A stretch of DNA of 64,000 nucleotides, from positions 96,001 through 160,000 of the forward strand of contig JAWXAQ010000030.1 in NCBI GenBank assembly GCA_034439575.1, given 5' to 3'. The notes beneath the pieces are model-generated. The model was not told where the DNA came from, did not search any database, and was given only the letters and a program-made list of their open reading frames with translations. Source of the stretch: Leptospira sp. (lineage in GTDB: Bacteria; Spirochaetota; Leptospiria; Leptospirales; Leptospiraceae). A program made the translations under genes and the position numbers. Shown here piece after piece: positions 989 to 54,800 of the stretch. The first letter of the stretch is position 1. The number at the start of each line of letters is the position of its first letter.

Positions 989-2919
989 ACTTCTCCGTAA
1001 CCTAAGACTTCGATAGACCATCTTTTTTCTAAATATCTTTCACCAAAAGATATCGCTTCAGGATCAATATTTTCCTTCATACTTTTCCAAAGACTTTCAG
1101 ACACTTCTCTATCCTGAAACCAAACCAAAGGCATATCTATCCCAATCTGATTTAAATTATCTGGTAGTGAAGATTTATCCATTTCCAGATAGAAAAAGAT
1201 ATTTTCATTTTTCTCCATGTTAGAAATCCATAATTTAGGTAAATCTGCATCCTTTTTGCATATAACAATGATTCGACGCTGCATATTTTCATTTCTATGG
1301 GCGAGTACTCTTGATAAATAACTTTGGGGAGCCTCATCTATTATTTTTTGAACTTTCTGAATGATAGCATCTGAGATCATAGTTTCTGTATAAAAAACAA
1401 AATCCATGGTGCAATAAGGATCAATGCCAATTCGTTTTTCTATACACATCTGCATTAGATTTAAATCCTTTGCCCAATCTTTTGATTCAAACCAAATCGC
1501 TTGGTGACGGCTACCTGGTTGTGAAATAACCTTTTGTATTTGATCTGGATTTAAATTTGAAAAATTGATATGAAAGTGATCATTAATATCACTAGCACCA
1601 TTACAAAGAAAGGGTCTCGGGAATTCGTCAACTCTACGATCTAACAAACTTTCCGCGAGCTCGAGTGTAGAGGAGATATCTTGTTCTGAAAAATCTGCTG
1701 TGGAAATGATACGATATGGGGGGCTTTGTAAAAAAATTAGTCCTTCCTTTTTGGCATCACGCCTCATCGCCGTTCCAGGCAAAACTGACAATGGAAATAC
1801 TTGCACCCATTCTTCCAGTCCATGTTCTAAAAAAAAATGTATTCCTCTTTCTACATCACTCGGTTTGTCTCCAGGCAATCCTATAATAAGGTCTAACAAA
1901 AGTTCTATCCCTTCTCCGACTAACATCTTCGAAACTTCGGCTACCTTTTCTGGATCCCCATATCTTTTTACACGTTTTAATGTTTCCGGATTTATGGATT
2001 GCATACCAAGTTCAATGCGATTGAATCCAGCTTTCGCCAATTTTTTGGCAATTTTTGATGTCACACCTTCTGACCGAAGTTCGGCGAACATAGACATCTG
2101 GTGGTCAGAATTTACTTCCGCGATAGCATCCAAAAAATTTTCGAATCCAGGACGATGGTTAAACGTAGGGTCTAAAAAAACTAATTCCCGAGCCCCACTC
2201 TCTTTCAAATGGCTGATTAGTTTTACTGTTTCATCAATATTTAAAGTTCTTAAATTTTGTGATGACTTGGGATAAAAACAATACGTACATTGAGATTTGC
2301 AGCCGCGCACAGTTTCTAGATAGGTGGATCTAGCACCATCCACAGAAAGAAATCCCGATGTATATGGGGAAGGAAAATCAGTGAGTGGGAAATCTGCCGA
2401 GACGTTATGTGTGAATTCGGACATTTTACCATTTGGCAATCTATAAGAAATATTTTCTACAGATGATAGTGGGGATTTTTCCACTAAGGATTTCATTAAC
2501 TTCCCAAAACTATGTTCTGCTTCCCCACTAACAGCGATATCATAGCCTAATTGTTCCATTAAAAATGGATTGTCAGCATTTACCTCGGGCCCGCCAATAA
2601 GTATAGTAATATCACTTTTTTGTTTTTTGAGTTCTCTCGCTAAATGAAGACTTCTTTCGGTATTCCAAAGATATAGTGAAAATCCGACATAGTCTGGATT
2701 TGATTCTAATAAAAAGTCAACAAGCTCCGTATCACCCATGTTATCCGTAATTTCTGGAGCGACAGATGTGGCGGTTAAATTTTTTATAGGTGTTTCTTTA
2801 TAGGAAAGACTTGATGCCAGGCTCGCCGCGGCGAGAGGAACATTTCCAGTCGCCGCATAATATGATGGAGGTGGCACAGGTAATTGTAATAATTGAATGA
2901 TTGCCAAGATTGTCTCCAA
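985..2919 (-). CDS. B12-binding radical SAM protein
   Basis: CxxxCxxC motif (RGCKSQCTYC); N-terminal cobalamin-binding-like motifs 'PDYVGFSLYLWN', 'ILIGGPEV', 'GEAE'. The true start may be TTG at 2907, behind a GGAG. Confidence 0.9.
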   Translation of the reverse strand: METILAIIQLLQLPVPPPSYYAATGNVPLAAASLASSLSYKETPIKNLTATSVAPEITDNMGDTELVDFLLESNPDYVGFSLYLWNTERSLHLARELKKQKSDITILIGGPEVNADNPFLMEQLGYDIAVSGEAEHSFGKLMKSLVEKSPLSSVENISYRLPNGKMSEFTHNVSADFPLTDFPSPYTSGFLSVDGARSTYLETVRGCKSQCTYCFYPKSSQNLRTLNIDETVKLISHLKESGARELVFLDPTFNHRPGFENFLDAIAEVNSDHQMSMFAELRSEGVTSKIAKKLAKAGFNRIELGMQSINPETLKRVKRYGDPEKVAEVSKMLVGEGIELLLDLIIGLPGDKPSDVERGIHFFLEHGLEEWVQVFPLSVLPGTAMRRDAKKEGLIFLQSPPYRIISTADFSEQDISSTLELAESLLDRRVDEFPRPFLCNGASDINDHFHINFSNLNPDQIQKVISQPGSRHQAIWFESKDWAKDLNLMQMCIEKRIGIDPYCTMDFVFYTETMISDAIIQKVQKIIDEAPQSYLSRVLAHRNENMQRRIIVICKKDADLPKLWISNMEKNENIFFYLEMDKSSLPDNLNQIGIDMPLVWFQDREVSESLWKSMKENIDPEAISFGERYLEKRWSIEVLGYGEV

Positions 2920-2961
2920 TCACCATAGGAAAACAAGATTCTATAATAGCAAAAACTTTCC

Positions 2962-4257
2962 CTACCGCGAAAGGACGATATCAATAAAGAGTATCAGATT
3001 ATCACCAAAATCCCGCGAAAAAGTTCGAAGCATCACATTTTCCGAAATATCGTGATACACAGGTGATATCGCCCAAGAATCTTTACTGGTTCTTGATTTG
3101 TGGATATGCTCAAAAAAATAAGGGCGCCATGACCAATTTTTGCCTAAATAAGAATAATCTGCGATTAATCCTTTTTTTGGATCTTGTGAATAGTTGGGTG
3201 AAATTTGAAAACCAAATGGATTTGTAATGTACATTCGAAAGAAATCTGAATCTTTTGAGATCTCAGACTGTCCTTTCAAATCCCATTCCCAAACTCCATC
3301 ATGCGAATCAAAACCCAGGGTAATATTTGATAACTTTGCTTTCCACCTTTCTTCCCAAATGATTTGGGATTCCATTTCTTCATTCTTTCTACCGTGGAAA
3401 TAATCTAAGGCATGACTCATCTCTTTTCTAAATCCAAATCTTTTTGCGAAGTCACGTTCTGGTTTGGCAAAATGATATCCTTGGATGTATCTTGCCCCAT
3501 AGTTTAGTGCATTATATAATTCATCATTTGATTCTATACCTTCAAAAAGTAGAGAACTTCCCAAGGATTCACCTAGTCTTGATAAGTTGAGTAGTATTTC
3601 TTTAAAATTTCTAGAGAATGTAGAACGACGTAACATTTGTAAGTCGACTTTTATAATTTCAGGATGATACAATCCAATTCTATCTAAATTCGATGCCTCA
3701 GATCCAGCATCATCAACCGCAATACTAAATCCTTCACTTCGATATAAATTCAGTATAGGTTTTAGAATTTCCAGATTTTGCTCAAACCTTTCTTCGGTGA
3801 TTTCTATCACTATCCTAGTAGGATCAATTTCTAGTTCCCTCACCTTTTGAATAGTAAACGGAAGTTTGGCGGGAAAACTTTGCAATAAATCAAACATTAA
3901 ATGAGGAGATACGTTTATAAATAATTTTGTCTCGGGCGGTGCCTCTTCTTTGAATTTTTTAAGTGCCTGGTATCGAATTTCACGATCCACTTTTTTTTTG
4001 AGTCGAAAGAGATCACTTGTTTTGTGAAAGTTAAGTTTTGAACCTCTTGCTTCATCAATGGCAAGAAAGAATGGCCCAAGGCTTAATAGTTCAGTTGTTG
4101 TCTCGAGTCGCCCAAGAACTTCGTAGCCAAAGACACCAGTGGATTCAGAAGACAATATAGGTTGAAATACAGGAACCAGTGTTCCCTTGCTTAACCAGGT
4201 CTCCCATTCATCAGTTTGTCTTAAATCTCTCTCTTGCAGAACCATTTTACTACTCAC
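2962..4257 (-). CDS. EAL-domain protein with YkuI-like C-terminal domain (c-di-GMP phosphodiesterase-like)
   Basis: Motifs 'PVFQPI...GYEVLGR', 'FINVSP', 'IEITE', 'AVDDAG', 'IIKVD', 'EGIE', 'YIQGY'; C-terminal 'GKNWSWRPYF' is typical of the YkuI_C domain. Confidence 0.9.
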   Translation of the reverse strand: MSSKMVLQERDLRQTDEWETWLSKGTLVPVFQPILSSESTGVFGYEVLGRLETTTELLSLGPFFLAIDEARGSKLNFHKTSDLFRLKKKVDREIRYQALKKFKEEAPPETKLFINVSPHLMFDLLQSFPAKLPFTIQKVRELEIDPTRIVIEITEERFEQNLEILKPILNLYRSEGFSIAVDDAGSEASNLDRIGLYHPEIIKVDLQMLRRSTFSRNFKEILLNLSRLGESLGSSLLFEGIESNDELYNALNYGARYIQGYHFAKPERDFAKRFGFRKEMSHALDYFHGRKNEEMESQIIWEERWKAKLSNITLGFDSHDGVWEWDLKGQSEISKDSDFFRMYITNPFGFQISPNYSQDPKKGLIADYSYLGKNWSWRPYFFEHIHKSRTSKDSWAISPVYHDISENVMLRTFSRDFGDNLILFIDIVLSR

Positions 4258-4791: not shown

Positions 4792-5391
4792 ATGGGCAAA
4801 TTTTTCGTATTTGAAGGGATAGATGGCTCGGGAAAGACAACTTTATCAAAACTTGTAGCTAATAAACTAGAAGCTCCACCGAACATAGAAATCATTTGGC
4901 ATAGAGAACCGACTGATGGCGCCTATGGAAAACAAATTAGAAATTTTTTGACAGGACGCATTACATTAACAAAGACAGAACAGATGGAACTATTTCTTAA
5001 AGATCGGCATCAATCCGTAACGGAAGTTATTCGACCAAATATCACAAAAGGAAATATCGTAATTCAAGATAGATATATTTATTCCACAGCCGCATACCAA
5101 GGTGGAAATGAATTTACTTGCGAAGAAATACTATTAAAAAACGAAGAACAAGGTTTTCCTAAACCAAATTTAGTTTTTTTTATAGATCTCACTCCAGAAG
5201 AAGCCCGCGAAAGAAGAGTCGCTCGTGGAGGAAAAAAAGAATATTTCGATGAAGACTCATCGCAAAATTTAATTTATCAAAATTATATGAAAATTTTACC
5301 AGCGAATACCGTATTCTTAGATGGTAATGCTAATTTGGAAGAACTAACAACGATTGTGTTGGAACAAATAATGTCGTACATTGTTGATTAA
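4792..5391 (+). CDS. tmk: Thymidylate (dTMP) kinase
   Basis: P-loop 'FEGIDGSGKTT', 'REP', 'DRYIYSTAAYQG', 'PNLVFFIDL'. Confidence 0.95.
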   Translation: MGKFFVFEGIDGSGKTTLSKLVANKLEAPPNIEIIWHREPTDGAYGKQIRNFLTGRITLTKTEQMELFLKDRHQSVTEVIRPNITKGNIVIQDRYIYSTAAYQGGNEFTCEEILLKNEEQGFPKPNLVFFIDLTPEEARERRVARGGKKEYFDEDSSQNLIYQNYMKILPANTVFLDGNANLEELTTIVLEQIMSYIVD

Positions 5392-5495
5392 TTGTTAAAC
5401 GACATGAACAGAGCATAATTTAAACCAAAAAGTTTAAAAATTTATTTATTTACTTAAAAAAAATAAATTAGGAAATATGAAATAATAATAATATT

Positions 5496-5906
5496 ATGAA
5501 ACAAAAACCAAATTTTGATCATGCACTACAAGATTTTCTAAATTCAATTTCTAATCGCAATATTGAAACATACAAAAAGTATATAACGAATGAAAAAGAA
5601 ATGTATACAATTGTCCAAAATGGACATGCATTTATAACTTCACTTGAATTAATTTCTATCCATGAAGAATGGTTCAAAGACCTTAAGTGGATTTGGGAAG
5701 GTAAAATTGTTCGAAAGGTTGTTGGAGAAGACATGTCATTTGCTCTAATAAAATATGATTATCAAATTACGAAGGAAGATCCTCCTTTCAGTAATTGGCT
5801 AACTTATGTATTTCGGTTAGAAAATAATGAGTGGCGAGTCATACATGATCATAATACCGCATTAGATTTCAAAGCATTTGCAAAATCAGCAGGCATTGAT
5901 ATCTAA
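5496..5906 (+). CDS. NTF2-like / SnoaL-like (DUF4440-type) protein
   Basis: 136 aa ending in 'TYVFRLENNEWRVIHDHNT', typical of this fold. Confidence 0.75.
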   Translation: MKQKPNFDHALQDFLNSISNRNIETYKKYITNEKEMYTIVQNGHAFITSLELISIHEEWFKDLKWIWEGKIVRKVVGEDMSFALIKYDYQITKEDPPFSNWLTYVFRLENNEWRVIHDHNTALDFKAFAKSAGIDI

Positions 5907-7869: not shown

Positions 7870-7892
7870 ATTTTTTTTATCGGTAATTATTT

Positions 7893-8729
7893 CTAAAATG
7901 ATTTGATTAATCTACGAATGATTAAAAAACAAAAAGACAATAAACACATAAAAAGTATGATCAAAGATGAAGTGGGAAAATAAATATCTTCTCCATGATA
8001 ATTGACACCAGTAAGACTCAGCAAAAATCCACCAGCTGTGCCAATGACTGAAAACAATACACATAAAATCGCAAGTATACGTGTTGATTTAACAATTGGC
8101 AATAGTGTAAAGACAGGAAGTAACATATGTGCAATGGAATAATAGGAACCTAAAATATTTACAGCCACAGTCACTGCGATGGATAGTATCATATAAAATA
8201 TGATATCAAAAATAATCGGATTTCCGATTTGGATTCTATATTCTTCCCTATCAAAACTCAAAAACAAAAATCTTCTAAATAATGCGATGTATAAAAACAA
8301 AGACAATAAGGCGAGCCATACACTGAGTGAATTGAGTTTCACTTGGGAAGTTAAGATATCTCCGAAATAAGAAGCCAACAAATGATTTTGGACATTCCCA
8401 CCTAATGCTAATAAAACTTGAGATAAGGATGCGAAAAAAACAAAAAGTATTCCAAGAACTACTTCTTCTTTCATGACTGTTGTTTTCCTTAATATGACTA
8501 AAGGAAAAATCAAAAGCATAGAAATCAATATAGGTGCGATTTCATTTTCCCATGACATAAATAGAGAAAAAGCTACCGAAAAACTAACTGCTTGTGATAA
8601 TGTAACACCAAAAAAAGTCATATTTCTTAATACAAGCAGTATCCCCAAAACACTCAAAAGTGCTCCGATGATACTACCGATTAAAATTTGGGGGAGAAAC
8701 AACTCCCAGTTATTTAATAAATCAATCAT
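7893..8729 (-). CDS. Metal (Zn/Mn) ABC transporter permease, ZnuB/MntB-like
   Basis: Multi-pass membrane protein with 'YFGDIL' and 'LSFDREE'. The likely ATG at 8729 overlaps the ATPase stop. Confidence 0.88.
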   Translation of the reverse strand: MIDLLNNWELFLPQILIGSIIGALLSVLGILLVLRNMTFFGVTLSQAVSFSVAFSLFMSWENEIAPILISMLLIFPLVILRKTTVMKEEVVLGILFVFFASLSQVLLALGGNVQNHLLASYFGDILTSQVKLNSLSVWLALLSLFLYIALFRRFLFLSFDREEYRIQIGNPIIFDIIFYMILSIAVTVAVNILGSYYSIAHMLLPVFTLLPIVKSTRILAILCVLFSVIGTAGGFLLSLTGVNYHGEDIYFPTSSLIILFMCLLSFCFLIIRRLIKSF

Positions 8730-9438
8730 GATGATGGCAGTTAGGTGGTCTCTCACCGTCAGAGATTTTATAAAATTTTCCTTCATCTATTTCAAAAATT
8801 TCATCAAATCCATCTTTCCAATCATGATCCAAACTATGAGTTATAAAAAAGAAGGCTCTAGTTTTTGGAAATAAATATTCTTTCAGTACCACTTGGAATA
8901 AATCCCTAGATTTATGATCGAGTGAGTCCATAGGTTCATCCAAAAATATCAAATCGGCTTCAGTAAGAAGAGAACGTAAAATTAATACTCGCTGCAACTG
9001 ACCTCCACTACATTCGGAAATCTGTTTATTCAAATATTCGATTACTCCAGTTCTCTCAATCAATTCCATCTGTGCTTCTGAAAATTTATTCTTTGGAAAA
9101 AAACTTAAGCCAATATTTTTTGGCATGAGCAACACTTCTTGGACATTCAAAGGATAATCCAATCTCATTTTTTTTGCCTGAGGAACGTAGGAACAAGAAA
9201 TATGTTTTGAAAAGAATAAATTTCCCGAAAGTGGACTGAGTAAACCTGTCAAGGTTCGAAAAACAGTTGTTTTGCCAGCTCCATTCCCACCAACTAATGC
9301 ATATGTTTTGCCAGGGAGAATCGTAAAGGATATATCTGAAACCACCGGAAAACCTTTCCTGTAACCAACAGATAAATGATCCGTCTTTACAAAAAATTCA
9401 TCCGTAGAAAGTAAATTATTTTGTTTTATCTGCAGCAT
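8722..9438 (-). CDS. Metal ABC transporter ATP-binding subunit, ZnuC-like
   Basis: Walker A GGNGAGKT, signature CSGGQLQR, Walker B IFLDEP, C-terminal CHHHD. Confidence 0.92.
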   Translation of the reverse strand: MLQIKQNNLLSTDEFFVKTDHLSVGYRKGFPVVSDISFTILPGKTYALVGGNGAGKTTVFRTLTGLLSPLSGNLFFSKHISCSYVPQAKKMRLDYPLNVQEVLLMPKNIGLSFFPKNKFSEAQMELIERTGVIEYLNKQISECSGGQLQRVLILRSLLTEADLIFLDEPMDSLDHKSRDLFQVVLKEYLFPKTRAFFFITHSLDHDWKDGFDEIFEIDEGKFYKISDGERPPNCHHHD

Positions 9439-10360
9439 CTCTTATTTTCTGTAAGGAAATTTTCAATGAATCTTCATACGTTTGTGCATCAGCAGTCCCT
9501 CCGACAGAGACGGGTAAAACCACAACCATACTCCCTGGAACTTTGGAAGAAACATATTCTGCATACTTCTGATTATTGTATGGTCCAATCAGTATAATTT
9601 TGATTTTTTCTGCCAGCATATAGGAAACGACTTGGTCCATATAACGAACAGATGGTGGAACACCAGGTCTTTCTTCGATTGTCAAATTTGCATTGAATTT
9701 AAATCGTGAGGCTAAATAAATAAATTGATCATGGAATACGGCAACTTTTAAACCAAAATAAGGTTCCATCTTCTTTAATTCATCTTTTGTGAGTGTTATC
9801 AGCTTCTTTTTGAAGTTATTGAAATTCTCATCGTAATAATCACCATTCATTGGATCAATTCTAATTAACGCATTCTTTATGTTTTGTGCCATCTGAATCG
9901 CATTGATTGGATCATTCCAATAATGTGGATTTCCATAGATGTGCATATCACCCATAGACCTATCCATCATAACTGCAGGTTCGCCGAGAATTTTTATTCC
10001 GAAAGATGTATCGCAATACCCAGGTTGTCCTTTTTGAATTTTAACATTGCGGGATTGTTGTTGTAAGTAAGGGATCCAACCTACTTCCATATCCAATCCT
10101 ATCACACATAAAATGTCCGCTTCATTTAACTTTACTATGAAATCTGGTCTTGTCATTACAAAGTGTGGATCATCAGTTCCACGAATCATACCATACACAT
10201 CCGCTCTATCACCTGCGACCTGTTCTGCGATATATCGTATATCGGTAATACTTGCGACCAATGAAACTTTTGCTTGAATACTTTCTGTAAAACCAAATAG
10301 GCTAAAACAAAAAAATAATAGGTGAATTAAATATCTGAATTTTTTCATTTTATACCTCAT
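9416..10360 (-). CDS. Metal ABC transporter substrate-binding protein (ZnuA/TroA cluster A-I)
   Basis: Signal peptide; 'DPH', 'GNPHYWNDP', 'FHDQFIYLA'. Confidence 0.92.
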   Translation of the reverse strand: MRYKMKKFRYLIHLLFFCFSLFGFTESIQAKVSLVASITDIRYIAEQVAGDRADVYGMIRGTDDPHFVMTRPDFIVKLNEADILCVIGLDMEVGWIPYLQQQSRNVKIQKGQPGYCDTSFGIKILGEPAVMMDRSMGDMHIYGNPHYWNDPINAIQMAQNIKNALIRIDPMNGDYYDENFNNFKKKLITLTKDELKKMEPYFGLKVAVFHDQFIYLASRFKFNANLTIEERPGVPPSVRYMDQVVSYMLAEKIKIILIGPYNNQKYAEYVSSKVPGSMVVVLPVSVGGTADAQTYEDSLKISLQKIRDAADKTK

Positions 10361-44044: not shown

Positions 44045-46474
44045 CTAGCGAGTCTCATTGCCAGTTGTAAAATTCCATTTCTTTTTCCAAACTCTCTTAC
44101 CTCTACGAATGCCTTCCGATTCTACAGTATATGTTTCGTTCGGTTCTAAAGGATCTCGACTCATAATCCAAATTTCAGTTTCACCACCAATTCCATATTT
44201 TCCATCAGAAGGCTGAATCAGCCAATGTGGAATTGTTTTACCAGAACTATTTTGAAGAATTGCCTTAAAATCTTTTATGTCATAAGAGCGATCTGAATAG
44301 AATTTAATTACGATCGGATATCCCACAATTTTATCTTCGTCATCTAACGGAGTCGTGTTGGGAATTTCATTAATCATAGTTAATGGAACATTCTGTTGGT
44401 TTTCATAAGGATACACTTTTACATCAGGAGCTGTGTGCTCCATCATATTCAAATATTGGTGATTTAAACCTACGACTCGCATTACGGCTTTTTGTGATTT
44501 TTGATTTTCAGATTCCGCATATCCAAATCCCACTTTAAGTAAACCAAGGCCTGTGATTGGCCTTCGATGTAAAATAGTTTGGTTCCAAGTATCCACGGAT
44601 TCTTCACCTTTGTCGTTGTTAAATGAAATTGTTTCACCTTGATACCCATATCTAAATTCCTTTTTTGAACCTTCAATTGTATACAGGGGAAGAATGGGAT
44701 TTTGATTGTGCGCACCCAAACCCTTTGTGGTTGGATGGTTTTCATTGGCAACGAGATATCTCGCATGAGCTTCTGAAGCTAAGGTCAGACGAACGTCCAT
44801 TTCTAATGGTGGTGCTCCGTAATCAACTCTAAGTCGATTGAGTTTCTCAAATGTTTTTCGATATAATACATGTATTCTCTCCTTAGGAGGAGATAGATTC
44901 CAATAAATGATAACTGTATTTGGTAACAATTGTTTGAGTTTACTTAGAGCCTCTGGGTTTAGAGGATTTCCATCGATATGTATTGATTTTAATGATTTTA
45001 GTCCTTTCATAGATTCAGGAAAATTTGTAATCTTATTATTACGTAGACTCAAATATTCCAGACTTTTTAATTTCCCAAGTTCATCAGGAACTATGGTTAG
45101 GTGATTATCACTTAAATCCAACAAATTCAAATTGTTTAAATTTCCAATGGATTTCGGAAGGGAATTTAATTCATTACCGCCTAGAGAAAGCTCATTTAAA
45201 CTTTTAAGGCTACCAATAGTATCTGGTATTTTTTGGATTTTATTTCCAAAAAGATTTAGCAATTTTAATTTTTTTAATCCTTGGATGTCAGTTGGGATAG
45301 TTGTGAGTTGATTGAAACTCAGATCCAGTTCTTGGAGATTATTCATTTTACTGATTGTCGATGGAAGGATGGTAAGTTTATTAAATGTTAAATATAAACC
45401 TTTTAAATAAGATAAATATCCAATATTTTCGGGAAGGGATTCGATTTGATTAAAACTCAATTCCAAAACCTTCAGATTTTTTAATGCACCGATTTCTTTG
45501 GGCAATGATTTAAGCGAATTTTGTCTAAGGTGAAGTATTTCTAGTTCTGTTAGGTGTTTGATCTCGGGCGATATACTTTCTATTTTATTGTTCCATAAAT
45601 AAAAATGAGTCAGGCCTTTCAATCCTTTGATATCAGAAGGGATTTCATTAATTTGATTCGAATGCGCCCAAAGTTTTTTCAATGAGCTAAGTTCATTTAG
45701 ATCATCAAATAGCGACTCAATTTTGTTATGTGCAATATTAAGTGAACTCAATTTCTTTAAACTATTAATTACAGTTGGCCATTCTGAAAAATGGTTGTCC
45801 ATTAAATTGAGATCATTAATATTTTCTAAATTCGCAAATGAATCAGGTAATTCATTCAATTCATTGGTTTCGAAATTAAGACCTTCTAGAGATTTCAAGT
45901 TTTCAAAACTTTTTGGCAATTCCCGAATTTTATTATTAGTAGCACTCAACCATTTAAGTTGCGTTAAATATGTTATAGAGGCCGGGAAACTCTCAAATTC
46001 ATTTTCATTCAATGAAATTCCTTCCAGATTTTTCAATTGATTGATACTTTCAGGAAGGAACGTTAGACGGTTTGAAGTCAATCTAAGTTCGGAGAGATTT
46101 TTTAAGGCACCCAATTCGGAAGGTAGTTCCCTTAAACCAGAACTTATCTCCATTCGCTCAATGAAATCAAGACTTTGGATGCTAGGTGTAAGATTTTCAA
46201 AGTCACCATATAACTCAAGCCGTTTGAGGTTTTTAAGAGTTTCCCAATCCTTAGGAACATCCGTGGATTTTGTGTATATAGTAAGTCTTTCTAAGTTTTT
46301 GAACTTGGTGAGACCTTTGGGTAGCTCATCTAGATTCTTACTAAGTGATCCTAATGTTAGTCGAGACCTTTGACTTGATTCACTTTGAATTTGTTGTTCA
46401 ATTGATTGTCCCGAAATCGAAACAAAAGTGAAAAAAACTAAACTCGACGTAAGGATAAAATTTCTAAATGACAT
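44045..46474 (-). CDS. Secreted leucine-rich-repeat protein fused to a CAP (SCP) domain and an Ig-like C-terminus
   Basis: Signal peptide; about 20 23-aa LRRs (LxxLxLxxNxLxxLPxxIxxL); CAP motifs 'LNRLR...APPL..D.RL..A..AHARYL', 'GETI', 'HRRPI...VGFG'. Confidence 0.85.
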   Translation of the reverse strand: MSFRNFILTSSLVFFTFVSISGQSIEQQIQSESSQRSRLTLGSLSKNLDELPKGLTKFKNLERLTIYTKSTDVPKDWETLKNLKRLELYGDFENLTPSIQSLDFIERMEISSGLRELPSELGALKNLSELRLTSNRLTFLPESINQLKNLEGISLNENEFESFPASITYLTQLKWLSATNNKIRELPKSFENLKSLEGLNFETNELNELPDSFANLENINDLNLMDNHFSEWPTVINSLKKLSSLNIAHNKIESLFDDLNELSSLKKLWAHSNQINEIPSDIKGLKGLTHFYLWNNKIESISPEIKHLTELEILHLRQNSLKSLPKEIGALKNLKVLELSFNQIESLPENIGYLSYLKGLYLTFNKLTILPSTISKMNNLQELDLSFNQLTTIPTDIQGLKKLKLLNLFGNKIQKIPDTIGSLKSLNELSLGGNELNSLPKSIGNLNNLNLLDLSDNHLTIVPDELGKLKSLEYLSLRNNKITNFPESMKGLKSLKSIHIDGNPLNPEALSKLKQLLPNTVIIYWNLSPPKERIHVLYRKTFEKLNRLRVDYGAPPLEMDVRLTLASEAHARYLVANENHPTTKGLGAHNQNPILPLYTIEGSKKEFRYGYQGETISFNNDKGEESVDTWNQTILHRRPITGLGLLKVGFGYAESENQKSQKAVMRVVGLNHQYLNMMEHTAPDVKVYPYENQQNVPLTMINEIPNTTPLDDEDKIVGYPIVIKFYSDRSYDIKDFKAILQNSSGKTIPHWLIQPSDGKYGIGGETEIWIMSRDPLEPNETYTVESEGIRRGKRVWKKKWNFTTGNETR

Positions 46475-47130
46475 TGGTATATCTCCTACAATCGCCTTCG
46501 TTTAAAATTAATATGATAGCTCGAAAATTATACTGTCACTAGTAAATGTGCAACTCTAATATTTATTCTGATGATAAACTATACATAGAAAATTATGTTA
46601 TGAAATTTAATCTTCCTGATCGTTACTATTCATAAAAATCGAATCAAATGAATACTGCTGGGATAAGAATAGATTTAGATTTTCTGTAACTTTAAAATAG
46701 GCTCTATTTGTTAATATTTAAGGCAAAGTTAAATCTAAAAAGCACATATAGCAAAAGATAGAAATTCATGCACCAAAAATTATTCAAGAGTTTCAAACTA
46801 TCTAATGTATTTTTTTTGCTTTTTACAATTGTGACACATTTAATAATATAACGACTGTTCCTAGGCTTGATCAATTACAAATCTCTCATCATTTCAAATC
46901 ATTAAAATTTCCGAACATGGTATTAAAAATTTGGATTTATCTTACAGCACTACCCGAAAAGAGACTTATACTCAAACAGATTCTATTGAAGGCATTTACA
47001 AATACAAAAACCAATATTCCACTCTTCCTACACCATATGTAAATTTAGTAAATTAGAATTATTTAAAAAGTAAATGTAATCTTTAAAAGTTGGATGAAGT
47101 TTGATTAAATTAAAATTAGTAGGCCCCTTT

Positions 47131-47321
47131 GATGTGTTATATGGATGAAACTTTATCGAAAGAACCGATCCCGCTCTCCCTAAGACGAGGGCACTCTGTC
47201 GAGCAATAGCAAACCTCGTTCCCATCTCCCTTCCCTCTCACCTCCGTGTTCGAAGGAAGGACTCCGACATCCATGTCTCCGTTACCGATGGAAACAAGGT
47301 TTGCTGGCCGAAGAAAGATCG
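47131..47321. repeat. Composite repeat, copy 1 (block A 47131-47181, hairpin block B 47209-47321)
   Basis: A is 49/51 identical to 51106-51156; B core 47215-47305 is 90/91 identical to 50962-51052. Confidence 0.95.
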
Positions 47322-47654
47322 TGTAACGATATCAATGATGGGCTCTCACATTCTGCAAAAGTATTATAAATTACGCTCTCATCCCGTTCTTTGTGGGTTC
47401 ATAACCTACTTACATCTTTTGAAACAGCCGCCTAAATAAAGATAACATTCGTTTTTCTGTGAAGTCTCTCTGCTTCTGGCGAAGGATTAGTTATGTACGA
47501 AAATCATTTCTTTTTGAAAATTAGTTCTATTCTATTTGTAAAATCGTGAACTAACTAACAATTTGTAGACTAGCAACGAACAATAAGTTTACTGTGTTGT
47601 GAAAATTTCTGTCTTAACGTACATAGCTTCTACGATTGTAGTGTTTGCGAGATT

Positions 47655-48256: not shown

Positions 48257-49024
48257 CTACGGCTTTTCATAACTCGTTGGATCATAAATATCTGCATCAA
48301 TTTTCCGTTTGTATTTTGTTTCATAAGCAGATACAAATTTTTCCATCTGACCCTCTGAAACTTTTTTCCATCCTTGAAACATAACCATCTTTAAAGAAGG
48401 CAGGTTCAACATACAATCTAGGCTTTTTTTAGTTAGGTTGGTCATATCATCCATGCGAAGGAAAGTAAGGTTTTTTGCATTTTCTGTGAATTTGCACATG
48501 CCTTCATCTGTGATTTTTGCACCAGGCCCAAGAATAAATCGATCTAATTTTAATACGTGCGAAAAACATTCAACATCATTGTCTAATAGAGGGACGTGGC
48601 TGTAATCTATTTTTACCTTAGGTGCTTTTAGTCCTTTTGCAATCTCACATATCTGTTTGTGGTTTAGTTCGCTTCCTCTTATAAAAAGTGTCGTTAAATT
48701 AGAATTCTTGCATGCGCTCATTTCCTGGTCACTGAAATCTGGCAAGGCACCCCAAGATATATCTAAGAAATTTAATTTCTTTATCGAACATATGGTTACA
48801 AGGTCTTCCGGTAAGTAAATTCCCTTTCCAGTCATTTCAATTGCAGGGATTTTTTCTTTCGTTGAAGCATCGAAAGTCTCCATATAATATCGATAGGACC
48901 GAGAAGTGAGATTTTTGATCAAATCTTCATCCGACAGGCTTGCAATCCGTGAAGTCGCCGTCGAACAAGCATGAAGGACGAAAGACATTAGAACGAAAGA
49001 TAATTTCTTCAAAGAGTATTTCAT
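48257..49024 (-). CDS. LRR-like lipoprotein (candidate immunity protein for the 49027 module)
   Basis: Lipobox 'VLHAC'; Cys-containing LRR-like units ('KITDEGMCKF...KNLTFLRM', 'LPSLKMVMF'); starts 2 nt after the upstream stop. Confidence 0.7.
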   Translation of the reverse strand: MKYSLKKLSFVLMSFVLHACSTATSRIASLSDEDLIKNLTSRSYRYYMETFDASTKEKIPAIEMTGKGIYLPEDLVTICSIKKLNFLDISWGALPDFSDQEMSACKNSNLTTLFIRGSELNHKQICEIAKGLKAPKVKIDYSHVPLLDNDVECFSHVLKLDRFILGPGAKITDEGMCKFTENAKNLTFLRMDDMTNLTKKSLDCMLNLPSLKMVMFQGWKKVSEGQMEKFVSAYETKYKRKIDADIYDPTSYEKP

Positions 49025-49026
49025 TC

Positions 49027-51021
49027 TTATTTCCTTGCTATATAATCAAAATTATAGGGCGCATATGTTGCATATTTGTTTAAATCGTTCTTAGGATTCC
49101 CCAATACTGACCCACTCACATTCTCTGGATCAAATTCCGTTCCATTCACAGTTGTCGATTGTGACCCATCTACCACTGTGTAAGTATAACGTCCATCCTT
49201 CATCGGATTCCTTTGTAAACTGATTGTATGACCAGTTCCACTACCATCATCTTTCACTCGCAATGTGATCGCTAATGGTTGTTCTTTCTTTAGAAAATCA
49301 GCAATGACTTGATATCCTTCTGCGCGTGCCGAAGCAACTGAAGCAGGATTGGATCTGTCGCCTTGTGGAAGTGGCGGATGAGATTTGTCATCATTCCATC
49401 GCTGGAAAGAACCATTGCCATTCATATAGGAATTGATTACCGCGCTTGTGCCACCTTGAGGTCCATTCAATTCCATGTTCTCAGGTTTCATAAAACCATT
49501 GTCAGTAATGTCCTTGATGAACTGTGGAAAATCTGGAATGGCATCACCTAAATTTCGTTTTAACATTCCCCAGTTAGCTGCTGCTACACACCACCTCTCA
49601 CGTAAGTAATCTGGCATACTTTTAGAATCTATGCCAGCCTTTACTGCTTCGGCAGTGGCATATGAAAGAGTTTCTGGCTTTCCCCATTGTTGGAGGGAAC
49701 CTTTTGCCTGGTTCGCATAATAATTTGAGTCTTGATGAAAAACTTCCCCAATTCTAAAATTCCCAGTGGCTTCATTTACATAAACATTCAATGCTAATGG
49801 TTTCGTAGTTGCAGGGAGAACTTCGATCACTCCATTCTTTGCATTGAAGAGCTTCTTCATTGCGTCAGAGATTACACCAGGTTCTTTTTTGAGTCCACCA
49901 GATTGGATCAGATCTTCTCTTGTATTACCTACTGTTTTTATAACATCGTCCATGGATTTACCATATTTCTTTTCAAAGGATGCTTGGGCTGCTTTCATTG
50001 CATCCGATTTTTTTGTCAAATCCGCCTGCATTTCTTTAGATATAGGCATATTATTGGATACAGACTCTATGCTTTTTGAAAGAGCATTCTTAAAATCAGC
50101 TTCTGCTTTTACATATTTATGAACTGCGGATTTTACAGAAGGATCCATTTCTTGGCTTAACATCGGATTATTTAGAATGTCTATTGCCACTTCCATTCTT
50201 TGCGTTTTCGATAATGATAAATCTTGTGCTTTTTTAAATATTAAGCGCTCCGATTCTGCCTTTTTAATAGCATCCATTTCCGTTTTCGTAATTTTAATCA
50301 TTTCATTCTGAGTTATTGTTAATTCATTATTATACTTTATCAAAGTGTTACTTAGATATTGAATTAATTGGGTTTCATTTTTTGGAACGAATCCTGGATC
50401 TTTTTGATGTAAATGGTTATATTCACCAACACCTAAAACCACTCTTTCAATCTGACCTCGAACTGCCTCGATATCCAGTTTCGCTTGTGAGGCTTTATCA
50501 TTCAATTCAATGTATTTCGGATCTAATTTTAACTCAGCAATTTTATTCTTAGCCTGAGTAATTCTCTCGTTTATATTTTGTTCTTGTTCGCTAATGATGC
50601 TTGTCCTGTCTGCATGCATGTTTTCAAAAGCCATCAAAGATTTTGTCACCGTATCTTGCATTGATCCCATATAAGCCCTTGCTGTATCAGTGGAACTAAC
50701 GACTGTCCGTTTTGGTAAATCGGGAACATTGATAATTACCTGTCCGCCATTATCAACTTTTACGTATACTCCTTTCTTATCTGAAAGCGAAAGAATTTTT
50801 GATTCCTCAATCAACTTTAATCTCTCGGAATCTGGCATTGCATTGATTAAATCAATACCTTCATTAGGTGTATTCGAAAATTTTGGTTCGATCAGTATGC
50901 ATTTAGGAATCTGGCCTTCCGTATAACGTGAATTATGTTTATTACCCAGCCCAGGCAAACGCTCGTTCCCATCTCCCTTCCCTCTCACCTCCGTGTTCGA
51001 AGGAAGGACTCCGACATCCAT
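49027..51021 (-). CDS. Orphan C-terminal toxin-like module with putative papain-like Cys-His-Asp domain; 5' end derived from a repeat
   Basis: No signal peptide; the first ~21 codons lie inside repeat B; coiled-coil body; 'RWCVAAANW', 'GHTISL', 'VVDGS'. Confidence 0.65.
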   Translation of the reverse strand: MDVGVLPSNTEVRGKGDGNERLPGLGNKHNSRYTEGQIPKCILIEPKFSNTPNEGIDLINAMPDSERLKLIEESKILSLSDKKGVYVKVDNGGQVIINVPDLPKRTVVSSTDTARAYMGSMQDTVTKSLMAFENMHADRTSIISEQEQNINERITQAKNKIAELKLDPKYIELNDKASQAKLDIEAVRGQIERVVLGVGEYNHLHQKDPGFVPKNETQLIQYLSNTLIKYNNELTITQNEMIKITKTEMDAIKKAESERLIFKKAQDLSLSKTQRMEVAIDILNNPMLSQEMDPSVKSAVHKYVKAEADFKNALSKSIESVSNNMPISKEMQADLTKKSDAMKAAQASFEKKYGKSMDDVIKTVGNTREDLIQSGGLKKEPGVISDAMKKLFNAKNGVIEVLPATTKPLALNVYVNEATGNFRIGEVFHQDSNYYANQAKGSLQQWGKPETLSYATAEAVKAGIDSKSMPDYLRERWCVAAANWGMLKRNLGDAIPDFPQFIKDITDNGFMKPENMELNGPQGGTSAVINSYMNGNGSFQRWNDDKSHPPLPQGDRSNPASVASARAEGYQVIADFLKKEQPLAITLRVKDDGSGTGHTISLQRNPMKDGRYTYTVVDGSQSTTVNGTEFDPENVSGSVLGNPKNDLNKYATYAPYNFDYIARK

Positions 51022-51156
51022 GTCTCCGTTACTGATGGAAACAAGGTTTGCTCAGCCGAAGAAAGATCGAAAATAAACATCTCTTTCTTTCCGTTGGGCA
51101 CCTCGGATGTGTTATACGGATGAAACTTTATCGAAAGACCCGATCCCGCTCTCCCT
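50955..51156. repeat. Composite repeat, copy 2 (block B 50955-51069, block A 51106-51156)
   Basis: Direct-orientation copies of the 47.1-47.3 kb blocks, but in swapped order. Confidence 0.95.
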
Positions 51157-51191
51157 CGACGGTAACGCTCGGTCGATCGGTGGTGCAAGAC

Positions 51192-51833
51192 TCATTTATT
51201 TTTTTCTTCCTTTTCTGGACCAACAATATCATAGGAAGAATTATTTTTTTGTATTTCGGCTATTTCTGCTACCGTCGTCACACATTCTTCATAAGTTGTA
51301 TAGTCAATCCCTGCTCTTCCATCGTCTAGAACTGTATCTGAATTTAAGGCATAAAACTCAAATTCGCGAAAGACAGGAGTTGGATCTTTGTAATTACCAC
51401 TGTAAATCATTTTGAATCGTAATATTTTGGTCTCGCTTTCATTGGTTAAATAAAAAAAGTCTCCTTTCTTTGACAAAAATTTCAAATGAATATCGAATTT
51501 GCGTCCAGTGGAACGAAAGCGAAACAAATTCTTATCGGGTATAAATTCACCACAAGATGTAGCATAAATAGGCCGATATTCCCAAGCATTGGAAGCTTTT
51601 TTTCGAAGATCATCCTCAATATATTTCAAAAATGTATCATCTGGGTCTAAAATAACGACTCCTACCAACTCAGGATAGTCCATCAAAGTAAACTTTGGAT
51701 CAGTATATACCTTTATATCTACTATCGAGTTAGAAACTGATTCTGTCTTAACTTTTTCGTCAACTTTTTTGCACGCAAAAGGCGGAAGACTCAAAAATAA
51801 TATTAGAATATAATAATTTAGCTTATTTGTCAT
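51192..51833 (-). CDS. Lipoprotein, candidate cognate immunity protein of the giant protein
   Basis: ATG at 51833 overlaps the giant ORF stop by 11 nt; MTNKLNYYILILFLSLPPFAC lipoprotein signal. Confidence 0.75.
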   Translation of the reverse strand: MTNKLNYYILILFLSLPPFACKKVDEKVKTESVSNSIVDIKVYTDPKFTLMDYPELVGVVILDPDDTFLKYIEDDLRKKASNAWEYRPIYATSCGEFIPDKNLFRFRSTGRKFDIHLKFLSKKGDFFYLTNESETKILRFKMIYSGNYKDPTPVFREFEFYALNSDTVLDDGRAGIDYTTYEECVTTVAEIAEIQKNNSSYDIVGPEKEEKNK

Positions 51834-54800
51834 AATAAATCCCATAGACTGGGTGATCCTTGAAATTAACTGGCAGAAAATCACCGCTTTCTCTTTCTCC
51901 ATTATTGTTCATATCATACCACTTTCCATCTGTTCCTTTGATGATCAAATTGTAATGATTGCCACCTGGACGATCTTTCCTATCTGTATCTCGATAAACT
52001 TGAACAACTTCACCAGGTTTTCGATCTGCTAAAATGTTGTTTACTTCGACTGTTGTAAATGGTCTTGATACACCAACAATCCCATTGTCAGTAAAATCAA
52101 AATTTGGGGAATTATTTCCCGTTTTCGTTCCAGTAAGATCGAGCCTACTTTCAACTCGGGTTGTATAACCGGCAAGATTATTTTGATCCATAACTGGTTT
52201 AGGTGGACTAGAACTATCTGCTCCGATATCTCCTATCCTAAACTTTGTGATCAGATATTCAGAAAAACTAGCAGACGTTTTGTTGTTTGCCACTGCAAGA
52301 GTATAATTAGCATAAACTTTACATAATTCCGCTGTTGTATTCTTTGCAATCGCGTCAGTCGATGCTGCCTTGTCGCCGAATATATAATTCTTGATAAATT
52401 CGAAGTTTTTACTCCCCGATGGATCTCCTGCAAAAGTAAAATTATCTTTTCCTTGATCCCTGATCGTGGCAAATACAAGTTCCACCATTTTTGACATCCC
52501 ACCATTCTTACTCTGATTGACAATTGTTGGGTCAAGTAACTTATTCATAGCGTTGATTCTGTCTTGTCCTTCCAGAGAAGCAAAACTCCGTCCTTCCAAC
52601 TCTGGCATATTTGCTCGAAGAAACTCGTCTGGTGTTTGATTTGCTCGTTCAATTCCATCAAGTTGAGCCTTTGTCAGACCCTCCACCGTTCTCATATTTT
52701 CTGCTGTATCAGAAAGTGTTTTTTGATACGGTTCCGCGACCTCTGGAATTCTGTCGAATTGGGCCTGTAAATTAGACGAAGAAACCGATATGGGCTCACC
52801 CAATTTGACAGAGTTCAATTTTTCTAATGGTCCATTAAAAGTCTGCGTGGTCGGATCAAAAAATTTCTGATGCAAGAAAGCATTCATCTCGGTTTTCAAT
52901 TTTCCAAAGGAAGTAACCTGAGCAGAAAGTTCATCATTTCGTGTGCGTACTTCTTTAATAATTTGTTTTTCAAGCTGCTGACTTTCAAGATTCGCTTTTT
53001 TATAGTCAACCGATTGATTCTGTAAATCCTTGATCTGTCTCACTAGAGTCATTTCCTCAGGACTTGAACCTTTAATTTGTGAAAGAATCTTCACGAAATC
53101 AGAGTCTTTACTCTTAACATCCAATCTTAAAACTTGTTCTAACAATTTTGGCTTACCATTTAAAAAACCAGATATATTGTTCTCAGACGAATTGCGATTT
53201 AATAACAATTCACTGCTATTTTGCCCACCAAGTTCAAATTTAAGTGTATCAAATGCGTTCTTTGTATCAGTAAGTTTTTGAATCAGCTTTCCTTGCTTGA
53301 CCTCGCTTGGCAATGGCTTAGATAATCTCTCAATGGCGCTCTCTACATTTGATATTTTGTCTCCAAAGTTTGTTTCAAATTCTACCCTATATGCTAATGG
53401 CATAGACTCAGAAATTTTTGAAAATGTATCATGAATTTTTTCTGATGGAGTTTTATTAGGAGTCCCCAATTCCGACGAGCCAAAATACTGAATACCAAGT
53501 GTTGATCTGATGAAACCCCCACCCGAATTGTCTGTCACATAAACCACATTAGGCTCTCCTCCGAGACCAGATGTCTGCCTTACATTATCAAAAATAGCCA
53601 TATCGCTTGCGTTAGGTGTGCGTATACTTGTTTCACCTGTGATTTCATTTAAAACGACTGTTTGCAATCGACCATTTTCATCTTGTCGAATTGCTTTCAA
53701 TGAACCATCTGCTTCACGACCATAAATTATACCTGAATCAGGATCTACCCAGTATCCATCTCGATCGATACCTTCATACATTTTTCGTCTTCGTGTTTCA
53801 ATCGCATCAACAGCTACGTTATTATTTGTTGTATTGTTAGGCGCCGCATTCCCAGCCCCTCTTCCTAGTCCAACGAACGCTAACAAGGCGGCACTTGTCG
53901 TGCCTAAGATTCCCATAGTTGCATCAGCAATCCCATCAGCACTGATCATGCCATCTATATGGTTAAGTGCCAAGCTTCTATCATATTCTGACATTCTATT
54001 GATTTGGTCAGATGTATACTGTCCGCTTTCCACTATTCGATTAGTATCTATGATACGAATGGCATTCTCTCTTGCTATGGGATCCATTCCACGAATTTGG
54101 TCTTCCGTATAATATGATCTAAGTTTAATATCTGCAGCTCTCGCTCTCTCGGCATCCCCCGTCATATCTTGCGCCAAATTGATATTTTGCTCAGCCCAAT
54201 TCATCTCATCATACTGGAAGCCATCTTCTGTCATTGTCGCTAAATTTACACCATGTAACTGTAGTGAGTTCGACAATCCGTTAGTGTCAATGGTAGCATT
54301 ATAGCCAAGTCCCGTAGCACTATCTGTATAGCCTACTGTTCCGGATACTTGCCCTCTATTTGTATCATAGTTCGCTCCAAAATTCCAACCTCGTCTTGGT
54401 CCTTCATTACTTGGATTATAGTTTACCCCTACTGTAGTTGAACCGTTAGTCGTTGAAGAGCCTGTTACTTGAACTCCTTCTATTGACGTATTATAAGACG
54501 CGTTAATGGTTGTATTTCCCCTCTGAGAAAAGGATATACTCGCATTAGTCATATCACCACCGATTCCGATCATACCGCCCCAACCAGCTCGCCTATCGTA
54601 GGTAACTCCAAGACCAAGTGTCGTACCGGATAATATACCGGTTCCGCTGCTGAATGTAAAGTTCCCATTAGCAGTCATCGCTCCTAAAAATCCGTTTGCA
54701 AAGCCTGCAAGCATGCCTTGCGTTCCATTCCGACTACCATCTATCGTCTGTACGGCTCCGTTTAGAATCGCGGCCGTTAATCTAGCACTGCCAGATACAG

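Follow-up and report, generated by a model that had tools for sequence, protein, structure and literature searches.

An orphan C-terminal tail of the TIGR04388 giant proteins of Leptospira and its presumed leucine-rich-repeat immunity lipoprotein

How does an open reading frame (ORF) of 664 amino acids (aa), with neither a natural start nor an export signal, come to lie behind a giant gene and directly ahead of a lipoprotein gene? The question is raised by a locus on the minus strand of a 64,000-nucleotide (nt) stretch of DNA from Leptospira sp. (NCBI GenBank assembly GCA_034439575.1, contig JAWXAQ010000030.1, positions 96,001 to 160,000 of the forward strand), here called the window, whose first letter is position 1 for the coordinates of this locus. 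Behind a resident giant of 2324 aa, which matches the NCBIfam model TIGR04388, and behind the lipoprotein gene of that giant stand the 664-aa ORF, which we call the orphan, and a gene for a second putative lipoprotein of 255 aa (Table 1). We favor the reading, at a probability of roughly 0.7, that what lies here, behind the resident giant and its presumed immunity gene, is a displaced, or orphan, cassette with a C-terminal tail of TIGR04388 giants. An earlier note on this DNA had proposed an orphan toxin tip with a leucine-rich-repeat (LRR)-like immunity lipoprotein; both ORFs lie where it placed them, on the minus strand, and its interpretation, an orphan TIGR04388 tail with a cognate LRR lipoprotein, is right in outline and partly supported.

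The relatives of the orphan carry most of this argument. When orphan residues 48-664 were searched against 40 other genomes of the genus, 26 matches were obtained, in 16 of the 40 genomes. Five formed the terminal part of open frames 1407-2682 aa long, three lay in frames running to contig ends, and 18 were found in frames of at most 614 aa, several in tandem and several with stop codons. Three long frames, of 2682, 2427, and at least 2359 aa, all scored above the TIGR04388 cut-off, and orphan residues ~35-654 aligned with the last ~550 aa of the 2682-aa giant at 24% identity (E 2e-38). A 2358-aa protein that NCBI names "TIGR04388 family protein" carries the tip domain, described below, at residues 2136-2335. 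The expectation that the orphan would prove to be the C-terminus of full-length TIGR04388 proteins in other strains is therefore borne out by the three long frames, and no homologue standing alone with its own N-terminus, which would have spoken against it, turned up in these searches; the complete copies were the C-termini of giants. When longer relatives of the orphan were sought by a word-based method, none came up, which is weak evidence; the genome and representative searches did find fused forms. As judged from these alignments, the orphan is a displaced C-terminal tail of TIGR04388 giants. The body of the tail, described as helical in the earlier note, had no Pfam match, and a PDB sequence search with it gave nothing below E 0.4.

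The 2682-aa giant (genome G036; locus L021, G036:C1) has an extra insert of ~300 aa (about 5035-5850) after its hydrophobic helix, with a GHSLGG motif and a Lipase_3 match of 21.6 bits against a cut-off of 22, so that this tail may carry two enzymes. A Lipase_3-like segment is a trait often seen in effector proteins.

We then considered the 5' end of the orphan. It lacks a signal peptide, as had been noted, and a Kyte-Doolittle scan revealed no hydrophobic or transmembrane segment; the ORF does not match TIGR04388, a model that covers the core of the giants, which is absent from the orphan. Upstream of the ATG, the frame is open for only 10 codons. Because the ATG and the first ~22 codons are sequence of a dispersed repeat with 22 genome copies, the start is not native, and its ATG was borrowed from the repeat; the first 20-34 residues match nine other places in the genome. 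The lack of a natural start thus holds more strongly than the earlier note had it. Just past the repeat, 38 nt of the orphan resemble a linker of the giant situated ~70 residues ahead of the hydrophobic helix (79% identity; a small search gave E 3.8e-4), and this stretch looks like the last remnant of the core. Beyond it, the orphan keeps no core stretch at its 5' end in common with the resident gene, and for a "swappable" tip, as it had been described, these 38 nt gave no evidence of swapping. With no core or export signal and an ATG taken from a repeat, the orphan therefore cannot be delivered on its own.

Kinship between the orphan tail and the tail of the resident giant was examined and rejected. 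The sequence SNTPNE stands at orphan residue 49 with 615 aa beyond it, and TPN stands at giant residue 1727 with 597 aa beyond it; the match in tail length noted earlier is therefore real as a measurement, but TPN is absent from that place in three other aligned giants, which puts the landmark at chance level. The collinear echoes reported between the two tails did not hold up, either by BLASTP (15.4 bits, E 39) or by hhalign, where a four-sequence profile of the first ~190 aa of the orphan tail class was matched to the giant tail with a probability of 0.08%.

What, then, does the tip of the orphan encode? An exhaustive HMMER search with the last 265 orphan residues against 1.84 billion representatives (E<=1e-3) returned only 26 proteins, five of which are 1714-2605 aa long and match at the C-terminus. 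By this count, the tip (last ~235 aa) is a rare family, with no Pfam or NCBIfam model. The Cys-His-Asp set proposed for it is present as W-C at residues 476-477, G-H-T at 597-599, and V-V-D-G at 616-619. In an alignment of 17 sequences, Trp-Cys occurs in every sequence that spans the site, conservation reaches at least 90% in the columns of His and Asp, and Gly-His-Thr and Val-x-Asp are near-invariant; Asn-Gly-Thr-x-Phe-Asp-Pro is a further motif. An AlphaFold2 (AF2) model of the 265 residues had a predicted local distance difference test (pLDDT) score of 86.9 and a predicted template modeling (pTM) score of 0.84; in it Cys78 lies just before helix 79-95, His199 in strand 198-205, and Asp219 just after strand 215-218.

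An exhaustive VIA structure search with this model gave eight PDB chains at Z>=8, the best being SpvD (Z 8.7), staphopain C (8.4), C39 double-glycine peptidases (8.4-8.1), and Josephin-type clippases (8.2-8.1). By title, nearly all of the 50 matches listed are papain-fold cysteine peptidases or deubiquitinases, among them 8ssm, the C39 peptidase toxin from a CdiA-like protein (128 residues at Z 7.2, with 16% identity, the highest listed). The leads from ESM Atlas, all scoring <0.9, were staphopain, C39, and C70. Resemblance to Peptidase C39/C39_2 is at the level of the fold only, with no Pfam match to PF03412 or PF13529 at E<=10. The tip is thus confidently predicted to have a papain-like (clan CA-like) cysteine hydrolase fold; since Z scores of 7-8 are also typical for models without relatives, we claim the fold class and not the family.

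The tip of the resident giant was compared in the same way. It keeps Cys, His, and Asn/Asp in three sequences (only three were compared), and its ESM Atlas leads, again all <0.9, were YopQ, Gln_amidase, C58, SpvD, and Cif. The orphan tip had been called a second, divergent warhead, but as a diverged copy of the resident tip it was rejected (hhalign 0.3%); the two have no detectable homology and are different domain families. Stretches similar to the His-Asp strand region of the orphan tip (query ~123-246) occur 11 times in one metagenome protein, P0016 (1514 aa), and 4 times in another, P0026 (826 aa), which suggests a repeated unit related to that hairpin.

The ATG of the 255-aa lipoprotein lies 2 nt past the orphan stop codon, as described before, and the pairing recurs in the genus. 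A same-strand homologue of this lipoprotein stands directly downstream of 21 of 26 toxin-domain matches, and, read the other way, the toxin domain precedes the lipoprotein in 21 of its 26 matches; of the five partner genes that lack a tip, three are in G027, one is in G019, and one is in G013. The proposal that the tail travels with a lipoprotein partner of its own is in line with these counts. Tips more similar to that of the window tend to have partners that are more similar as well (Spearman correlation of the identities 0.78, n=21), a descriptive value, as related genomes are not independent. The closest tip relative (79% identity) is a fragment of 183 aa starting just after the catalytic Cys, and behind it lie an intact partner gene (61% identity) and a gene of the 187-aa type discussed below. 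Because this fragment, lacking the catalytic Cys, still has an intact partner gene, it is the lipoprotein and not the enzyme that persists. The 255-aa lipoprotein is presumed to be the cognate immunity protein of the orphan tip. A predicted complex of the tip with the mature lipoprotein scored 0.01, 0.55, and 0.00 against a mark of 0.32, in runs made without controls.

We also examined the lipoprotein itself. Its leader has a basic and a hydrophobic region followed by Cys20, near-invariant in 14 relatives, with an atypical His at -2. The family has invariant Cys residues at 79, 105, 126, 153, 177, and 204, one per repeat, every 21-27 residues. The AF2 model (pLDDT 88.7) is a solenoid of alternating strand and helix, and a Foldseek search of the PDB with it gave 37 chains at E<=1e-3, led by the LRR domains of KDM2A/KDM2B, FBXL17, TLR2, and NLRP; by title, nearly all of the 50 rows listed, some of them just beyond that E limit, are LRR proteins. 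UniRef labels three relatives "Leucine-rich repeat domain-containing protein", and the Pfam LRR models did not match the 255-aa protein. An LRR fold, which the earlier note had predicted, is thus supported by modeling, and it is of the cysteine-containing type. Nine relatives were found at E<=1e-3 in a search of 5.8 billion clusters, every source name shown being Leptospira, and from these names the family appears to be confined to Leptospira. The two lipoproteins of the locus (255 and 236 aa) are unrelated, as was said of them, their best BLASTP match having E 9.6. The remark that LRR immunity would be unusual has to be modified, as Imm-LRR is already listed among the immunity proteins of polymorphic toxins, though as a rarely used class, in Zhang et al. 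2012 (PMC3482391).

A 187-aa protein bearing a signal peptide is encoded by the third gene of the module. The homologues nearest to it (63-64% identity) stand right behind the closest partner genes in G004, G019, and G027, and in two of these three genomes 187-aa-type fragments also lie behind a second cassette; distant homologues (42-50%) occur at loci elsewhere, in further genomes of the genus. We treat this protein as a linked accessory. In G027 (C1:427576-439874) and G019 (C1:88906-90231), partner-type genes, each with a 187-aa-type gene behind it, occur with no toxin-domain match nearby, and these loci look like immunity-only loci.

The resident giant scores 192 bits against TIGR04388 (Lepto_longest), for which the cut-off is 45, and consists of an N-terminal signal or anchor, a conserved core to ~residue 1700, and a variable tail of its own of ~600 aa. 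A hydropathy scan placed a hydrophobic helix at residues 1626-1644, followed by RRRK, and in all four giants compared the junction of core and tail is a hydrophobic helix followed by basic residues; this is the true end of the conserved core. Compared with the three other giants, the core is 36-44% identical up to residues 1672-1717, where similarity ends. Pfam gave no match in the resident giant, which has no Rhs/YD or filamentous-haemagglutinin repeats, and a PDB sequence search with the whole protein gave nothing below E 0.4. The last 260 aa of the resident tail recur at the end of a 2315-aa frame in genome G034 (47% identity), and the sole homologue of the 236-aa lipoprotein among the 40 other genomes directly follows that tail (33% identity). 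The 236-aa lipoprotein is presumed to be the immunity protein of the resident tail.

The family is widespread in the order. Of 151 Leptospirales genomes sampled, 87 had a TIGR04388 match above the cut-off, among them all 38 sampled genomes of the same genus besides the source genome; of 14 control genomes, none had one. The source genome itself has a second full-length gene (open frame of 2267 aa, G000:C13:16952-18628). In other genera of Leptospirales (G052, G079, G119), frames of 434-1488 aa match only model positions ~1400-1693, the last ~230-290 of the model, and are found about 5-40 kb downstream of a full-length gene in the contig that carries both; these core-end frames are a classical orphan layout in which a piece of the core is retained. 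At locus L023 (G012:C27), an open frame of at least 540 aa (7880-9499) follows a giant and its partner gene and runs to the contig end; it ends in Gly-rich sequence resembling the core of the giants and may be a larger orphan or a second giant. Together, the conserved carrier core, the interchangeable tails, and the tail-specific partners suggest that the giants behave like polymorphic toxins.

On this reading, a core of ~1700 aa with a signal sequence, ending in a hydrophobic helix, would carry interchangeable tails of 600-900 aa, each followed by a tail-specific lipoprotein gene. The orphan would have kept a complete tail, that is, the body and the hydrolase domain with Cys477, His598, and Asp618, and would have lost the core and the export signal. 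What is maintained is probably the downstream LRR lipoprotein, perhaps together with the 187-aa secreted protein, and when a neighbor delivers an enzyme of this class, the lipoprotein would bind it in the periplasm and block it there. We infer a periplasmic or envelope target because the partners of both tails are lipoproteins; toxicity, neutralization by binding, and interbacterial delivery are likewise part of what we infer. Peptidoglycan as the substrate of the tip is only a guess.

Several observations weigh against the favored reading. The orphan is intact over 2 kb, while many of its relatives are truncated or carry stop codons, so that either the displacement could be recent or the ORF could have a function of its own. 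In a comparison with the nearest fragment, non-synonymous (pN) and synonymous (pS) differences were 0.16 and 0.66, with synonymous sites near saturation, and these values seem to point to past purifying selection on the orphan ORF. No secretion-system genes adjoin the locus, whose upstream neighbors are AcrB-type transporter genes. The fold match of the tip is generic, Z 7-8 being the usual top score for models without a clear relative; Foldseek with the tip against the PDB gave none at E<=1e-3, its weak list consisting of papain-fold enzymes, and the tip has no Pfam (E<=10), NCBIfam, or PDB sequence match, the tip profile giving nothing below E 0.4 against the PDB. Finally, the topology of the giant (an N-terminal signal, one later helix, then RRRK) would, by the positive-inside rule, put the tail in the cytoplasm of the producer, yet the presumed immunity protein is a lipoprotein.

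The intact frame invites another explanation, namely that the orphan is a working stand-alone gene to which the repeat gives its start, and that its 664-aa product has a role within the producing cell, for instance that of a regulated protease, with the lipoprotein as an unrelated neighbor or a regulator. Besides 664 uninterrupted codons, an intact Cys/His/Asp set, and non-synonymous differences from the nearest relative that are far fewer than the synonymous ones, there is a GGAG just upstream of the ATG, inside the repeat, and no terminator-like site between the orphan and lipoprotein genes. However, the GGAG is only 2 nt from the ATG, and the repeat that makes up the first ~22 codons is found at 22 places, mostly intergenic. 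The closest relative is, moreover, the 183-aa fragment past the catalytic Cys, whose lipoprotein gene is intact, and the complete copies end giants, no homologue with an N-terminus of its own having been found. We therefore consider a stand-alone gene unlikely.

The topology problem also fits a reading without toxins. Here, the giants would be envelope or adhesion proteins, the tails self-processing or surface-remodeling peptidases, and the lipoproteins dedicated inhibitors or chaperones, with the orphan as a decaying duplicate. NCBIfam assigns TIGR04388 no function, and our literature search found no paper that mentions it; C39-type and Josephin-type peptidases, which are among the best fold matches of the tip, are processing enzymes. 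In the available portions of the literature on Leptospira polymorphic toxins, TIGR04388 is not named, and PT8 is given there as a Leptospiraceae-specific polymorphic-toxin domain validated by others. Against this non-toxin reading stand the tail-specific partners, the tandem truncated tails that keep their partners, the partners without tails (G027, G019), and the unrelated tails on one core, which are a signature of polymorphic toxins as described in PMC3482391, as well as the lipase-like segment in the G036 tail. We rate it very unlikely, and we retain the displaced tail cassette of a polymorphic-toxin-like giant as the favored reading.

Since the start of the orphan lies in a repeat, we analyzed the repeat itself, which has a module A of 60 nt and a module B of 115 nt. 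At the two ends of the three-gene module, 91 nt at 50962-51052 and 47215-47305 are 99% identical, and the 60-nt modules at 51097-51156 and 47122-47181 are 92% identical, with the order of modules swapped between the two copies. BLAST found ~30 repeat pieces in the genome; a genus-wide DNA search found 22 copies in the source genome and weak matches in four of the 40 other genomes. Module B is predicted to form an outer stem of 18 bp that encloses two inner hairpins (-22.7 kcal/mol), with a z score of -3.6 on the gene strand versus -2.1 on the other strand. Among 15 aligned copies, compensatory changes were seen in 10 of 33 pairs between two subtypes, which differ in this way in the inner stems and each of which may stem from one event. 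Rfam returned nothing at the repeat.

Repeat copies also cluster elsewhere in the source genome. At locus L026 (G000:C11:38000-47218), a tyrosine recombinase gene at 2713-3606 is followed by five copies that separate small genes, including two PIN-domain genes. The recombinase scores 231 bits against NF040815 ("tyrosine recombinase/integron integrase"; cut-off 220) and stays below the integron-integrase model TIGR02249 (162 bits; cut-off 265). At L028 (G000:C8:230000-236000), repeat copies enclose a 157-aa ORF (2704-3174), whose Peptidase_C39_2 match (E 5e-4) stays under the cut-off, and a 264-aa protein (3178-3969) that has a signal peptide; this may be another stranded pair of enzyme and partner.

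These clusters raise the possibility that the three-gene module is a mobile cassette of an integron-like kind, in which the repeats are sites of site-specific recombination and a tyrosine recombinase moves cassettes, in place of a homologous exchange of tails. The module is bracketed by two repeat copies that are 96-99% identical in module B; module B has a hairpin with compensatory changes; five copies follow a recombinase that passes NF040815, in a layout like that of integrons; and the third cluster, at L028, encloses a weakly Peptidase_C39_2-like fragment next to a secreted protein. The stem ends of module B carry AAC...GTT, the most conserved bases of attC core sites, but the full attC core consensus is matched only in part. 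The recombinase, moreover, fails the TIGR02249 cut-off, and the orientation of the repeat agrees with that of the genes at our locus but is opposite to that of the plus-strand PIN genes in the recombinase cluster. The copies are 90-97% identical and nearly confined to the source genome, which fits a recently expanded miniature element, and the homologous cassettes in five other genomes showed only one weak match to module A (L022). Contigs from four metagenome runs contained no joined, excised, or rearranged form, though they were too fragmentary to have shown one. A cassette of this kind is, in our view, improbable. Lower still do we rank the compound claim that the TIGR04388 giants are a polymorphic-toxin delivery family of Leptospirales and that their spare cassettes are moved as units at the 115-nt repeats by a XerA-like recombinase, as in integrons. 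In the abstract of PMC3607928, integrons in spirochaetes are reported only from Treponema.

How does the displaced tail cassette compare with known systems? The orphan modules of rhs and cdiA, as set out in PMC3482391, likewise have a conserved carrier, unrelated tips, and a small partner gene behind each, with truncated modules of tip and partner behind the full-length gene, sometimes in arrays, in which partners outlive tips. The present carrier differs in being a TIGR04388 protein without Rhs/YD or filamentous-haemagglutinin repeats, and no conserved demarcation motif was found at its core/tail junction, which has the hydrophobic helix and basic patch instead. The swapped unit would be 600-900 aa long, the partners are lipoproteins, and this orphan keeps almost no core for homologous recombination.

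For the enzyme, the nearest parallel is StbD-CT/StbI of Citrobacter rodentium, in which a C39 cysteine peptidase forms the tip of a CdiA-like protein (bioRxiv 10.64898/2026.05.07.723447; PDB 8ssm, 8ssk). According to the abstract of that source, StbD acts in the target cytoplasm on topoisomerases, and it is a precedent for a cysteine-peptidase killing tip on a polymorphic toxin. Both have a papain-fold cysteine peptidase (in our case predicted) at the extreme C-terminus, a separate domain before it, and an adjacent immunity gene (here presumed); unlike StbD-CT, to which it has no relation at the sequence level, the orphan tip has a lipoprotein as its partner and would act in the periplasm.

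The partner can be compared with Imm-LRR and with the cysteine-containing LRRs of F-box proteins and RNase inhibitor, in that an LRR solenoid is the presumed binder of a toxin, the best folds being KDM2A/KDM2B, FBXL17, NLRP, and RNase inhibitor. It differs from Imm-LRR in its putative lipoprotein signal, its lack of a Pfam LRR match, and its seemingly Leptospira-only family.

A third comparison concerns compartment. In the type VI Tae/Tai pairs, papain-fold amidase effectors act in the periplasm and are countered by periplasmic immunity proteins. The tip and its lipoprotein would similarly pair a Cys-His hydrolase with an immunity protein exported to the periplasm (here presumed). A type VI amidase complex (9jdd) is among the weak Foldseek matches of the tip, at rank 20, but NlpC/P60-type amidases are not among its top structural matches, and the ORFs read around the locus showed no type VI genes.

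Orphan toxin-immunity modules, and LRR immunity in principle, were known already, while the carrier family appears to be undescribed. If the favored reading is true, the longest Leptospira proteins carry toxin tips that can be exchanged, and spirochaetes would have a competition system of their own; the tip would stand for a new family of papain-like enzymes, likely with an envelope target; the 255-aa protein would be a natural LRR inhibitor of a cysteine hydrolase, its specificity readable from ~20 co-varying pairs; and the orphan would illustrate immunity genes being kept after the weapon is lost.

The features of the locus are collected in Table 1. Their order on the minus strand is two ORFs for AcrB-type transporters, the giant, its lipoprotein, a repeat, the orphan, its lipoprotein, the 187-aa ORF, and a second repeat.

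Table 1. Features of the locus in window coordinates
Feature	Position	Strand	Basis or remark
Resident giant, 2324 aa	51823-58797	-	TIGR04388 match
Resident lipoprotein, 236-aa ORF (214 aa from likely ATG 51836, overlapping the last codons of the giant)	51192-51836	-	ORF and lipobox-like signal; presumed immunity protein
Composite guanine-cytosine (GC)-rich repeat, whole 237-nt intergenic space	50955-51191	-	Module A 51097-51156; hairpin module B 50955-51069
Orphan ORF, 664 aa	49027-51021	-	Repeat-derived codons 1-22, giant-linker remnant, tail proper
Remnant resembling the pre-helix linker of the giant	50907-50944	-	Inside the orphan ORF, after the repeat
Tail body, orphan residues ~48-399	49825-50880	-	Common to other tails of the same class (G036, G012, P0004)
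Papain-like C-terminal domain (predicted), orphan residues ~428-664	49030-49740	-	Alignment and AF2 model
Cys477	49591-49593	-	Putative catalytic set of the orphan tip
His598	49228-49230	-	Putative catalytic set of the orphan tip
Asp618	49168-49170	-	Putative catalytic set of the orphan tip
LRR-fold lipoprotein (predicted), 255 aa	48257-49024	-	Presumed cognate immunity protein
Secreted protein, 187 aa	47655-48218	-	Linked to this cassette subtype
Second repeat copy	47122-47325	-	Module B 47209-47321, module A 47122-47181, order swapped; closes the three-gene module

Neither Pfam (above threshold) nor NCBIfam matched the orphan, the two lipoprotein-like ORFs, or the 187-aa ORF. A scan of the locus for promoters and terminators did no better than on shuffled sequence, and Rfam gave only a sub-threshold snoRNA (small nucleolar RNA) match at 51262-51333, which we take as chance. 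The genome is a 4.1-Mb assembly in 37 contigs. Protein relatives in the databases bear the names of saprophytic Leptospira species, DNA of the locus is also present in microbial-mat and groundwater metagenome runs, no RNA data set was listed as containing it, and the source organism is an environmental, saprophyte-type Leptospira. Just past the module, on the minus strand at 44045-46474, lies an 809-aa protein with an LRR_14 match (E 3e-54) and a CAP domain; it has only the LRR fold class in common with the 255-aa lipoprotein, the latter being without a Pfam LRR match.

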